Of a stretch of DNA of 64,000 nucleotides, positions 47,178-50,906 are shown one piece after another. A program made the position numbers and the translations under genes. Each line of letters begins with the position of its first letter. The first letter of the stretch is position 1. The notes beneath the pieces are model-generated. The model searched no databases. It was not told where the DNA came from and saw only the letters and a list, made by a program, of their open reading frames with translations. Source of the DNA: a virus; the IMG/VR virus record IMGVR_UViG_3300046733_001096, positions 1 to 64,000 of that record; one strand, written 5' to 3'.

Positions 47178-47329
47178 TCAGATTTCCAGATAGTCCAGAT
47201 GCCATAAGCAATCGCTGCATACGCAATTAAATCAACTGGTACAATAAGCATTGCGATCCCAGTTGCAACCAATGCAGCACCGTCGAGTGTTGTACGTTCT
47301 TTTAGTCTATTTTTAATCCAATTAATCAT
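47174..47329 (-). CDS. Small membrane protein, holin-like (51 aa, not in ORF track)
   Basis: MINWIKNRLKERTTLDGAALVATGIAMLIVPVDLIAYAAIAYGIWTIWKSE; RBS GAGGAG. Confidence 0.55.
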   Translation of the reverse strand: MINWIKNRLKERTTLDGAALVATGIAMLIVPVDLIAYAAIAYGIWTIWKSE

Positions 47330-48251
47330 TTTTTTTCTCCTCTAATAATTTATTATAAAATAGTTCTTCATCTGGACAATTATTATGTTCAATTTGAATA
47401 GTTGTATGTACTATTTTATAATTATCGATTAACAGTTTCTTGGTATTATATATTGTATCATCACATTCGCCATCATCCAATATATTAATGTGCATAGCGG
47501 CTGAAATTTGCCCGCTTGCTAATTCCCATATATGTATATGGTGAACATTATTAACATGATCCACATTTGTCATAATGTCTTTTACTATAACATCAATGTC
47601 GATATGTTCTGGTTTTCCAGTCATTAGTATTCTAATACAATCTTTTAATAATTCCCATCCACTTTTTAATATTAAACTGGCAAGGACTACACTTATAATA
47701 GGATCAATATAATACCAATCAGTAAAGTATATAACAATACCACCAATTATAGCACCGACACTGCCTAAAATATCAAGTAAGATATGAAGTATCACCCCAC
47801 GCATATTGATATTGTGTCCATCATGATGATGATGCACTACTTTAAATAATATCAAATTAACGATTAGTCCAGTGATTGCGATTGGCAACATCCAATATAT
47901 ATCAACCATTTCAGGATTTAATATTCTATATATTGCTTCATATATTATATACGCAAATAGTCCTATCCACATTAACGCATTTAAAAATGCAGCAATAACT
48001 TCCGCTCTCATAAATCCATATGAGTATGTTTCAGTTGGTGGTTTGCGACCTATCCAAAATCCAAATACTGCGATAATCATTGCCAATGCGTCAGTTGAAA
48101 GATGTAATGCATCACTTAGTAATGCAAGTGAATTACTTATATGAGCACCAAATAATTCAATGACAACAAACATTACTAAAATTAAAATGCTTATTTTTAG
48201 TGCACGTTCTTCTTTGCCTGCTTTTCTGATATGATACTGATTATGTTTCAT
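47322..48251 (-). CDS. Cation diffusion facilitator (CzcD/ZitB-like)
   Basis: SLALLSDALH..TD, YGFMRAE, His-rich loop, HILLDILGS, HHIHIW, HTTIQIE. Confidence 0.92.
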   Translation of the reverse strand: MKHNQYHIRKAGKEERALKISILILVMFVVIELFGAHISNSLALLSDALHLSTDALAMIIAVFGFWIGRKPPTETYSYGFMRAEVIAAFLNALMWIGLFAYIIYEAIYRILNPEMVDIYWMLPIAITGLIVNLILFKVVHHHHDGHNINMRGVILHILLDILGSVGAIIGGIVIYFTDWYYIDPIISVVLASLILKSGWELLKDCIRILMTGKPEHIDIDVIVKDIMTNVDHVNNVHHIHIWELASGQISAAMHINILDDGECDDTIYNTKKLLIDNYKIVHTTIQIEHNNCPDEELFYNKLLEEKKND

Positions 48252-49164
48252 TAGTTTTTTTCTTTATATTATATAGTTCTCTGATACCATTTTCAATACT
48301 GATAGATGGGCTCCATCCAAGAAGTTTACTTGCTTTAAATATGTCAGCAAGTGTTTCACTCGCATATCCTTTGGGTTTCTCTTGATATTCTATTTCTAGA
48401 TTAGGAAAAAACTCTCGCAATATTTCAACTACTTGATTTACAGAAACGTTTTCTCCTGTCCCCACATTAAAAATTTCACTCTTTACTTTAGATTCCATAC
48501 TTGCAATACATGCACGTGCTACATCACTAACGTGTATGTAATCTCTTCTATATTCACCATCACCGTGGACTGTCAATGGTGTATTTTCATTAGCCATGCG
48601 ATAAAATCTACTAATCATTAATCCATTGGTATCATCCGATGGCTGTTCATCGCCATATACTGTGAAAAAACGCAATACATTATAATTTAGTCCAAAAACG
48701 TTTTTATATTGTTTACACAATTGCTCACCAAATAACTTAGTCATTGCATAATAATTTAATGGATCAGGTTTATGAAATGGTTTATGAGGTATGGGATTAT
48801 TTCCATATATACTTGATGAACTTGAAAACACAAATTTACGAATTCCCACCGCGTGTGATGCAGTCAACATATTACGTGTTCCAGTAACATTTATATCAAA
48901 ATATAAGTCCGGATCAATAAAACTATCTGGTATTCGTGTCTTTGCTGCCAGATGAATAACAAAATCTTTGCCAGCAGTTGCCATTATGCACTTGGCGGCA
49001 CTTTGTATGTCGCCCTTAATATACTTTACCATTTTAAAATCATTGGGCTTTTCAGCAATGTCCAAAACAGTTACTTCATAACCTTTTCTTAATAATTGCC
49101 TGACAACTTCTCTGCCCACAAAACCAGCGCCGCCAGTTACAAGAACTTTACCTTTTGCTAACAT
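48241..49164 (-). CDS. NAD-dependent epimerase/dehydratase
   Basis: TGGAGFVG, HLAA, SSSSIYG, YAMTK, RFFTVYG, RDYIHVSD. Confidence 0.92.
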   Translation of the reverse strand: MLAKGKVLVTGGAGFVGREVVRQLLRKGYEVTVLDIAEKPNDFKMVKYIKGDIQSAAKCIMATAGKDFVIHLAAKTRIPDSFIDPDLYFDINVTGTRNMLTASHAVGIRKFVFSSSSSIYGNNPIPHKPFHKPDPLNYYAMTKLFGEQLCKQYKNVFGLNYNVLRFFTVYGDEQPSDDTNGLMISRFYRMANENTPLTVHGDGEYRRDYIHVSDVARACIASMESKVKSEIFNVGTGENVSVNQVVEILREFFPNLEIEYQEKPKGYASETLADIFKASKLLGWSPSISIENGIRELYNIKKKTNET

Positions 49165-49279: not shown

Positions 49280-49354
49280 TGCACTACACGCATACCGAGT
49301 CTTCGCAAAATGCAGTTGTTTTTAGTGTTTTTTAGTGTTATATTACTATAAATA
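49280..49354 (+). promoter_or_regulatory. Promoter with tandem LysR-type T-N11-A boxes plus a TATAAATA box
   Basis: TGC-N7-GCA (49280-92), TTC-N7-GCA (49302-14), TTGTTT-N17-TATATT, TATAAATA 49347-54. Confidence 0.55.
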
Positions 49355-49454
49355 AAAGTGTAAGATAAGCGACCTCAGCTTATAAAAAATGAGTGGCACT
49401 GGGAAAGACTAGGGTATTGCTTCCCTCAAGCATCAAACAATTTGGAGAAACTGA

Positions 49455-49649
49455 ATGACACTAAACCTATTTAGTGCCCTAGCAAATCTTTTTGGAGGAT
49501 TTCCTAATAGGGCAACAAAACGCTCAGACTTAATGACTTGGGCAAAAACAGAGTATGCACGTGATTGGGAATTTGCTTACCAATACATGCTTGATAACAG
49601 TGGCAAAGCGCCATCACACAGACACACACAAGGAATAACACATGATTAA
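49455..49649 (+). CDS. Small protein (TWAKTEY..DW.FAYQ motif)
   Basis: RBS GGAG; first gene of the plus-strand operon. Confidence 0.65.
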   Translation: MTLNLFSALANLFGGFPNRATKRSDLMTWAKTEYARDWEFAYQYMLDNSGKAPSHRHTQGITHD

Positions 49650-49878
49650 TAAACTAGTAATAGCATACAAAAATTTTAGAACCGAAATGGATTATAGAAA
49701 GAAAGTTCGTACAACAATCAAAGAACTGTCTGCACTTTCAAACTATGAACTAAATGATATCGGAATTTCACGTGGTGAAATATATAATATTGCAATCACA
49801 TCATATAATAAACCAGAACGTCTAGTAGTTGAAGATATTGAAATAACAGTAAATGAAAATCTAAGAGGGGCAGTATAA
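49642..49878 (+). CDS. DUF1127 (YjiS-like) small protein
   Basis: R.T..EL..LS..EL.DIGISRGEI signature. Confidence 0.88.
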   Translation: MINKLVIAYKNFRTEMDYRKKVRTTIKELSALSNYELNDIGISRGEIYNIAITSYNKPERLVVEDIEITVNENLRGAV

Positions 49879-50054
49879 TGACTACATTAGTAATGGAATA
49901 TACGGTAAATCCTTTTTGGAATGCTCTTAAAGTATTTGGTCGTGGCACATGGAACTTCTTAGAGTCAGTGGGATATGCAAGAGCCGCTGCTGAACTACAT
50001 CGTCAAGGCTTCTACAAAGAAGCTAAAGACTTGATGTTAATGGACAGGAGTTGA
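49878..50054 (+). CDS. Small protein (58 aa, not in ORF track)
   Basis: [58 protein letters not shown]; TAATG coupling, RBS GAGGGG. Confidence 0.7.
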
Positions 50055-50058
50055 TACA

Positions 50059-50283
50059 ATGACAGGTGATATAGCAACTATGGGCGCAATGATTGGCGCC
50101 GGACTAGCAACATTAGGAATGGGTGGTGCTGCAATCGCAGTAGGAATTATTGTCGGTAGTGTATTTAAAGTTATGCCTAAAAAGCCTGACAACGGAACAA
50201 TGTTTATTGGTGTTGCATTTGCAGAAGCATTAGGTATCTTTGCATTCTTAGTAGCACTACTACTAATGTTTGCAGTTGTATAA
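50059..50283 (+). CDS. atpE: F0 ATP synthase subunit c homolog with altered loop
   Basis: [18 protein letters not shown] helix; [26 protein letters not shown] with the proton-binding Glu; RBS AGGAG. Confidence 0.88.
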
Positions 50284-50504
50284 TGGTTGGTGAACAACAT
50301 ATGGAAATATCAGCACAAGTAGTGCAGAAGTTAGGTTTCTATATGTTTGTGATAATGACTTCACTACTAATAATATGCATAGGATTTGGTTTCTATGCAG
50401 TAATTGATAAGTTCAAAGAACCAAATTGGAAAGAGGCATGCCTTGAAAAGGGTGGAGTACCAGTTCAACTAGATAAATCAATGTTTGATTGTAAAGGAAT
50501 ATAA
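50283..50504 (+). CDS. Single-TM small protein with C-terminal Cys pair
   Basis: TAATG coupling to atpE; ACLEKGG...FDCK. Confidence 0.6.
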   Translation: MVGEQHMEISAQVVQKLGFYMFVIMTSLLIICIGFGFYAVIDKFKEPNWKEACLEKGGVPVQLDKSMFDCKGI

Positions 50505-50505
50505 T

Positions 50506-50640
50506 ATGTTAAAAAGATTTGTAAAAGCAATGGAATACCGTTCATACTGTATGGCAATTCGTGAATTACGCAACAAAGGCTTATATAAAGAAGCACAACG
50601 TGTCAGTGAATATAAGCACAATATGTATCCTACTACTTAG
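50506..50640 (+). CDS. Small protein (44 aa), similar to 49878..50054
   Basis: MLKRFVKAMEYRSYCMAIRELRNKGLYKEAQRVSEYKHNMYPTT; RBS AAGGA; shared Y..A..EL...G.YKEA. Confidence 0.6.
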   Translation: MLKRFVKAMEYRSYCMAIRELRNKGLYKEAQRVSEYKHNMYPTT

Positions 50641-50654
50641 TAGTATGATCGAAG

Positions 50655-50906
50655 TTAATTAGGACCAGCAATGAAATGTAGTTTGAGCATTATGCCTTCT
50701 ACATCTGCTGGTTCAAGATAAGGTATAACATCATCTCCGGTATGTATACCAGGTAGTTGAACAAAATTATTATCCTTGAACACTGCAATTTCATAAAGTT
50801 TTTTGCCTGGTTCTTGAATCACACTCAAATCATAATTACCAAAAGACCGTTTGGCTTGAAAGTGTTGCGGTCGTATTTCATTAAATTGTAAATCACAAAA
50901 ATTCAT
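50655..50906 (-). CDS. Hypothetical phage protein
   Basis: LSVI...LYEIAV...DDVIPYL pattern. Confidence 0.55.
   Translation of the reverse strand: MNFCDLQFNEIRPQHFQAKRSFGNYDLSVIQEPGKKLYEIAVFKDNNFVQLPGIHTGDDVIPYLEPADVEGIMLKLHFIAGPN

Follow-up and report, generated by a model that had tools for sequence, protein, structure and literature searches.

A phage locus that joins DUF1127-type microproteins to an ATP synthase c subunit variant without the R-N-P loop

In Alphaproteobacteria, the CIN1 loci co-transcribe ccaF1, which encodes a DUF1127 protein, with the anti-Shine-Dalgarno (anti-SD) CcsR/cuckoo RNAs; CcaF1 binds RNA and is tied to RNA turnover, and in S. meliloti the cuckoo RNAs lie in the 5' untranslated region (PMC8034643). 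Other small DUF1127 proteins, the SDPs of A. tumefaciens and YjiS of E. coli, bind the sensor kinase PhoR (PMC12501420), and in Salmonella YjiS associates with the inner membrane (PMC11707872). For the c subunit of ATP synthase, purified c-rings form large ion-conducting channels that are closed by F1 (PMC9433415). Here we analyse a viral locus in which a DUF1127 gene and a gene for an altered c subunit (AtpE*, or c*) stand together. The locus consists of six small genes at positions 49,455 to 50,640 of a 64,000-nucleotide stretch of DNA (positions 1 to 64,000 of IMG/VR virus record IMGVR_UViG_3300046733_001096), referred to below as the window. A preliminary description of this DNA had cited CcaF1 and RNA turnover as background for the DUF1127 gene; that background is correct and is now extended by PhoR binding.

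The source record is a 78.9-kb IMG/VR viral contig that CheckV rates as 31% complete, so the phage genome is probably about 250 kb. The features of the locus are as follows, with a near-identical related locus, L188, serving as the reference for the insert:

49347..49354, plus strand: TATAAATA box, T4-type late promoter-like, about 100 nt upstream of o1
49361..49454, plus strand: structured 5' leader RNA with covariation, an invariant 21-mer and a Shine-Dalgarno (SD) sequence
49455..49649, plus strand: o1, 64 aa, microprotein 'WAKTEY..DW.FAY.YM' outside Pfam families
49642..49878, plus strand: o2, 78 aa, DUF1127 protein with the C-terminal tail N-x-N-L-R-G-A-V
49878..50054, plus strand: o3, 58 aa, TPR-like helical peptide
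50055..50505, plus strand: atpE*-o5 insert, a presence/absence polymorphism relative to L188
50059..50283, plus strand: o4 (AtpE*, c*), 74 aa, F-type ATP synthase c subunit with an altered loop
50283..50504, plus strand: o5, 73 aa, single-pass membrane protein
50506..50640, plus strand: o6, 44 aa, 'MEYRSYCMAIRELR..G.Y' peptide, part of the base cassette

The genes on both sides lie on the minus strand (48241-49164 upstream, 50655-50906 onward downstream), which makes the six genes a plus-strand island. Coordinates, junctions and flanks thus agree with the island of 64, 78, 58, 74, 73 and 44 aa proposed in the preliminary description. Going from o1 to o6, successive genes overlap by 8 nt and by 1 nt (TAATG), are separated by 4 nt, overlap again by 1 nt (TAATG) and are separated by 1 nt; an SD sequence precedes five of the six starts. 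The open reading frame (ORF) list gives o6 as 50485-50640 with a TTG start (51 aa); we take the 44-aa form that begins at the ATG at 50506, because the same ATG is common to 21 distinct relatives. All six ORFs are under purifying selection (dN/dS 0.09-0.40), the median pairwise values for o1 to o6 being 0.36, 0.40, 0.39, 0.086, 0.23 and 0.11 at a dS of about 1. The locus is best explained as one late-transcribed, translationally coupled operon that is a composite of two parts.

In ATP synthase, the R-(Q/N)-P loop on subunit c contacts the gamma and epsilon subunits of F1, and c-loop mutants of E. coli are uncoupled. AtpE* retains the helices of this subunit and has lost that loop. It matches Pfam ATP-synt_C (PF00137) over the full profile (1-60) with 48.8 bits against a gathering cut-off of 24. 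On the AtpE equivalog model, NCBIfam NF005733, whose cut-off is 85 bits, it scores 59 bits; the AtpE of Neptunicoccus (P0099), used as a control, passes with 104.7 bits. The preliminary description had called this protein a variant AtpE, and the replaced loop and the equivalog score agree with that reading. Among named cellular proteins, those of Rhodobacteraceae (Neptunicoccus, Amylibacter, Marinosulfonomonas) come closest, with about 63% identity, and the best match of solved structure is the c subunit of Paracoccus denitrificans (5dn6_J, E 5e-25), whose loop reads ...GALRNPSAAASQTAT.... By its sequence, AtpE* is best explained as derived from a Rhodobacteraceae-type c subunit, and we infer a host within the same family.

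The cellular-type loop reads ...GALRNPxAAxxQTAT.... The phage-type loop is 5 residues shorter in the main clade and reads AAMAMPHRSAEQNAN in a clade of 78-aa proteins. The R-N-P loop is present in 39 cellular-type sequences and absent from all distinct phage-type sequences (116/116). When the consensus of the 39 is set against that of the 116, helix 1 is nearly identical and 25 of 27 positions agree in helix 2, while agreement in the loop is found at 0 positions. The ion-binding carboxylate is kept: across an alignment of 21 phage-type sequences, E56 of AFAEALG and most of helix 2 do not vary, and dN/dS for the gene is 0.086. Subunit a (ATP-synt_A, PF00119) was not found in the window's record (about 31% complete) or in four large relatives, among them a 221-kb record rated 100% complete by CheckV. 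Retention of the ring, the Glu and the outer helix together with loss of the grip on F1 argues against a spare part, and for either entry into Fo with uncoupled rotors or a free ring. Our literature search found no paper describing a phage c subunit or a function of atpE*-o5.

The second gene of the pair encodes the membrane protein o5, which, judged from co-occurrence, is an obligate neighbour of AtpE*. Searches with o5 retrieve essentially the same set of contigs as searches with AtpE, at a ratio of about 1:1. Invariant positions in the alignment are G18, F22, M25, L28, C32, G36, F37, V40 and C53, all of which except C53 form one conserved face of the single helix. In the long forms, two conserved Cys are found in the C-terminal 32 aa. 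In the AlphaFold2 (AF2) model, residues 3-44 form a confidently predicted helix and the C-terminus (helix plus hairpin) is of low confidence. The K/R counts beside the helix, 1.1 (N side) and 1.9 (C side), favour neither topology. Prediction of a complex of three AtpE* and o5 scored 0.00 and is uninformative either way.

An AtpE search of IMG/VR gave 77 loci, of which 75 were used for order counts. The order DUF1127-o3-atpE-o5 is intact in 71-75 of these 75 viral loci (tblastn, ORF clustering); the synteny of DUF1127 with atpE, for which the preliminary description had suggested a search of viral databases, is strong. About half of the 75 loci contain o6 and a few contain o1; their flanking genes mostly differ, and c*-o5 was never seen apart from DUF1127-o3. 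Near these loci the relatives also encode a family B polymerase, a DnaB-like helicase, RegA (PF01818, E 4e-44) and Hsp20, which identifies them as T4-like phages. One clade (L017, L026, L029 and relatives) has DUF1127-o3-atpE*-o5 directly after the Hsp20 gene, with neither leader nor o1.

The remaining genes have a wider distribution. The base cassette, which consists of the TATAAATA box, the leader, o1, DUF1127, o3 and o6, is present in more than 120 marine viral contigs among the matches listed. We counted architectures in 71 distinct contexts behind the leader. The commonest was o1-o3 (21 contexts), followed by o1-DUF1127-o3-o6 (16), o1-DUF1127-o3 (11) and o1-o3-DUF1127 (5); atpE-o5 was included in 4 contexts, and the other 67 were without atpE. 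Pairwise alignment of L188 with the window shows a single gap, which corresponds exactly to 50055-50505 (about 450 bp). The flanks are colinear, and the leader of L188 is identical to that of the window from the TATAAATA box to the 21-mer. The atpE*-o5 pair is therefore a discrete two-gene insert, and the position of o3 and o6 on either side of atpE is explained by insertion, or loss, of the pair at that point. Since the microproteins are found without atpE in 67/71 contexts, in L188 and in the cultured phage Melnitz, they do not need AtpE, and the earlier proposal of one dedicated six-gene module is not supported in that form. The microprotein cassette is best explained as older, phage-specific and separate from atpE*-o5. 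Searches of the INPHARED cultured phages with the cassette and with AtpE* (blastn, tblastn) gave no match.

The region ahead of o1 carries the candidate control elements. The box at 49347-49354 is the sole plus-strand TATAAATA in the window. The other eight of the nine copies, at 324, 15717, 21905, 25749, 43486, 44598, 45936 and 46906, are on the minus strand. All nine share the strand of the local genes, most of them in short gaps right before a start codon, and in most relatives the box is found 110-150 nt ahead of the leader motif. The leader itself contains the invariant 21-mer GGTATTGCTTCCCTCAAGCAT (49413-49433), which recurs without mismatch in more than 120 viral contigs among the matches listed; in those contigs an o1-type or DUF1127 ORF begins 9-31 nt past it. 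The 21-mer encloses an invariant hairpin, UGCUU-CCCUC-AAGCA (49418-49432), whose YCCUC loop is complementary to SD, and the SD of the leader is GGAG at 49444-49447. A further hairpin at 49397-49414 precedes the 21-mer, with 4/5 pairs covarying and 0 broken among 35 sequences, and relatives carry additional 'GAC-stem-GAAAGAC-stem' hairpins. A comparison with Rfam gave no match in the window (E<=1) and none in five relatives (E<=0.1).

Contigs from RNA libraries of three studies span 49362-50670, with little on the flanks, and start at 49374-49406, just past the TATAAATA box, a hint that the operon is transcribed. A joint in two of these contigs (X16, X17) that runs from 50010 to 50526 and skips atpE-o5 was left unused: its sides are only 30-34 nt with likeness set to 90, and it may stem from insert-free relatives or from the similarity of o3 and o6. 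We also dismissed a sigma-70 'promoter' at 50031-50060, which overlaps the atpE start codon; the sigma-70 scan was not above chance, and a terminator scan of the window gave nothing above chance.

Among the microproteins, o2 is assigned to Pfam DUF1127 (PF06568) with 40.1 bits against a gathering cut-off of 23.3 (E 2.9e-10), and each of five phage records examined has one DUF1127 copy. No Pfam or NCBIfam family was found for o1, o3, o5 or o6, and PDB profile searches with o1, o3 and the DUF1127 protein gave no usable structure. The tail of o2 is conserved, with N71, N73 and G76 invariant in the alignment. A tail of the form N-x-N-(L/M)-x-G-x-x, most often NxNLKGWV, is found at the end of 101 of the 11,336 distinct ORFs of the fetched loci (window 49855-49878; L002-L284), compared with 0 for a reversed-motif control. 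Its bearers are 92 DUF1127 proteins, 3 o1-type proteins and 6 unassigned small ORFs that are DUF3563-like by eye, and an o3-family protein (P0143) carries the tail as well. From this distribution, the shared tail looks like a short docking or degradation tag. It was found in 0/32 bacterial DUF1127 proteins (L285-L314, alphaproteobacterial genomes). Several long bacterial DUF1127 proteins end in N-x-N...P-R-x-A-A, and o3-DUF1127 fusions, of which there are two clusters (P0166 and P0269), end in SDNLRAA; by their sequences these ends may be a related C-terminal signal.

For o1 there are 42 distinct relatives at <70% identity, with E33, Y34 and W38 invariant. A possible assignment to DUF3563 found no match, as 0/22 o1 members hit any Pfam family at E<=0.01; other small ORFs in cassette loci look DUF3563-like by eye. 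The core of o3 is G-(Y/R)-(A/S)-R-A-A-A-E-L-x-R-x-G-Y-x-E-E-A-K, and a profile search of 1.84 billion proteins returned 391 cluster representatives at E<=1e-3. Those inspected are small proteins save three longer ones, and those looked up are unnamed metagenomic proteins or 'hypothetical'. A search of 400 alphaproteobacterial genomes found no o3 save one weak match within a 318-aa frame. The scan of genome contigs gave two tiny contigs, one in a metagenome-assembled genome and one in a single-amplified genome, both of which are probably phage DNA. One of 27 o3 members matches TPR_4, weakly (E 0.0057), and a TPR-like repeat protein (P0224) is among the o3-profile matches. ESM Atlas searches with o3 and o5 returned unnamed clusters only, mostly viral, with scores <0.9. 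An N-terminal module common to o3 and DUF1127 was considered and dropped (hhalign probability 1%).

The alignment of o6 has 17 invariant columns, and in relatives without atpE-o5 this gene comes directly after o3. The preliminary description had treated the 58- and 44-aa peptides as related. The shared motif is present, but support for kinship is weak (hhalign probability 24%, P 8e-4, 21 columns). A different C-terminal module, ...YEPGDHYMRG(H/K).VA.WKG.A.., is common to the 84-aa o3-type ORFs of L190 and L193 and a second DUF1127 ORF of L180. In one clade (for example L015:442-627 and L009:1489-1689) the hydrophobicity of the o3 N-terminus would suffice for a membrane anchor, with Kyte-Doolittle means over 19 residues of up to 2.0; the o3 of the window, with a mean of 0.5, is not anchor-like. 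Many proteins of the o3 family, and some DUF1127 proteins, begin with a CxxC motif. Directly upstream of the island, the minus-strand genes 47322-48251 and 48241-49164 encode a CDF cation-efflux transporter (PF01545, E 7.5e-49) and an NAD-dependent epimerase/dehydratase.

The reading we favour, with a probability of roughly 45%, is that c* enters the host Fo and gives rotors uncoupled from F1, encoded within a composite operon. The first part of the operon would be the leader with its anti-SD hairpin followed by o1, DUF1127, o3 and o6, a set common in marine T4-like phages. By analogy with the described DUF1127 proteins, it probably acts through small-protein binding to a PhoR-type membrane sensor kinase and/or to RNA. 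In AtpE*, selection appears to have kept membrane insertion, ring packing, proton binding and the face toward subunit a, with the loop that grips F1 gamma/epsilon rewritten. Late in infection, c* would join the host Fo in mixed or all-phage rings, possibly assisted or capped by o5. These rotors would fail to pass torque to F1, and they would thereby act on the host ATP synthase and the proton-motive force in a dominant-negative or uncoupling manner, of possible use in lysis timing or superinfection exclusion. In a further version, c* would be a 'rotor decoy', shaped by evolution to enter the host Fo without ever engaging F1. With o5 as its partner, it would make the host ATP synthase a proton leak or brake under phage control, while the new leader and the DUF1127-type microproteins set translation of the operon; this version is in our view possible yet doubtful.

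Several points weigh against uncoupled rotors in the host Fo. A phage needs ATP, and uncoupling would be costly unless timed late. The central stalk is contacted by just a few c loops of each ring, so coupling might survive in mixed rings. A conserved M-P-K-K core remains in the phage loop, suggesting that the loop gained a binding role and was not simply lost. The putative Rhodobacteraceae host is read solely from the closest cellular AtpE sequences (about 63% identity). As for late expression and control, the total count of TATAAATA in the window is not above chance, so that position and orientation alone are suggestive; the single-sequence fold of the window leader is not unusually stable (z -0.2); and RNA-library contigs can contain DNA.

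Loss of the F1-docking loop in every variant would also be expected if AtpE* and o5 formed an F1-independent membrane device outside the host ATP synthase, such as a free c-ring or a c-ring/o5 pore serving as a holin, a leak channel or a means of superinfection exclusion. A single-pass partner that is obligate and conserves one face of its helix, the late-promoter-like box upstream and the channels of purified c-rings that F1 closes (PMC9433415) all fit such a device. However, the outer helix and Glu are near-identical to the host type, a better fit to continued work against host subunit a, and the idea of a c-ring pore comes from mitochondria; we regard this explanation as unlikely. The M-P-K-K core, in turn, is what might be expected if all six proteins were one system in which the rewritten c* loop is bound by DUF1127, o3 and o6 instead of F1. 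The translational coupling of the genes, the conservation of DUF1127-o3-atpE*-o5 in 71-75/75 loci despite differing flanks and the inner-membrane association of Salmonella YjiS (PMC11707872) are consistent with this view. Yet the leader contexts without atpE, L188 and Melnitz show the microproteins on their own, and the linkage could reflect a single ancestral insertion into a very short operon, which leaves a single six-protein system somewhat less probable than the membrane device.

The strong purifying selection on AtpE*, its place within Pfam ATP-synt_C and the JGI label of its relatives, 'F-type H+-transporting ATPase subunit c', would also suit a conventional auxiliary metabolic gene, with AtpE* as a spare c subunit to replenish or maintain the host ATP synthase during infection. 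This is hard to reconcile with a coupling loop absent in 116/116 phage-type sequences, a score below the equivalog cut-off, the carriage of c with no subunit a found, and the constant company of a phage-only membrane partner. We consider a spare subunit improbable, slightly more so than the one-system view. Finally, o1, o3, o5 and o6, which lack a Pfam, NCBIfam or PDB match, might be ORFs that arose by chance, with atpE and DUF1127 the only genes. Their conservation in tens to hundreds of contigs, dN/dS values of 0.11-0.39 at a dS of about 1 and the SD sequences at five of six starts make this very improbable indeed.

If uncoupled rotors in the host Fo are the correct reading, a c subunit without its grip on F1 would be a natural, virus-made tool that separates proton conduction from ATP synthesis, and the locus would represent a new and widespread phage control of host energy (at least 77 ocean viral contigs). 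The rotor decoy, if true, would be a hitherto undescribed kind of viral switch acting on the proton-motive force. The base cassette places DUF1127 microproteins and a new leader RNA in a tractable phage context, with Melnitz as a cultured representative, and the window and L188 offer a ready-made natural comparison for the presence and absence of atpE*-o5.

How the locus relates to the described systems can now be stated for each of them. Compared with the AtpE of Rhodobacterales (P. denitrificans, PDB 5DN6 chain J), AtpE* has the same two-helix hairpin, with a nearly identical N-terminus, Gly-rich helix 1 and AFAEALG helix 2. It differs in that the R-N-P loop is replaced and the equivalog cut-off is failed, and in that c is phage-encoded alone, with no subunit a gene found and o5 always next to it. 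The mitochondrial c-ring channel (PMC9433415) is a precedent for a ring unable to dock F1; however, it is a eukaryotic stress phenomenon with a normal c subunit, whereas the phage variant is genetically fixed and virus-encoded. With the PhoR-binding DUF1127 proteins the phage proteins share the Pfam domain and small size, but they are longer (70-113 aa) and have their own N-terminal segment and C-terminal tail.

The closest cultured counterpart is Melnitz (MZ577098), a Methylophilales phage of the Kyanoviridae and the sole cultured phage found with the cassette. Its genes 44-46 are o1-like, o3-like and DUF1127 genes in a row behind a TATAAATA box; the annotation calls the first two hypothetical and labels gene 46 only 'protein of unknown function DUF1127'. 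Unlike the window, Melnitz has the order of o3 and DUF1127 reversed and is without the 21-mer, atpE*, o5 and o6. The likeness to CIN1 lies in a DUF1127 gene that shares its transcript with a hairpin RNA whose loop is complementary to SD, with the RNA placed 5' as in S. meliloti. In contrast to CIN1, the phage loop is YCCUC and not CCUCCUCCC, the hairpin architecture is different and has no Rfam match (CcsR, ar14), o1, o3 and o6 are phage-only, and the phage DUF1127 tail N-x-N-L-K-G-W-V is absent from the 32 bacterial homologues. The phage locus works like CIN1 at most and is not a member of that group.

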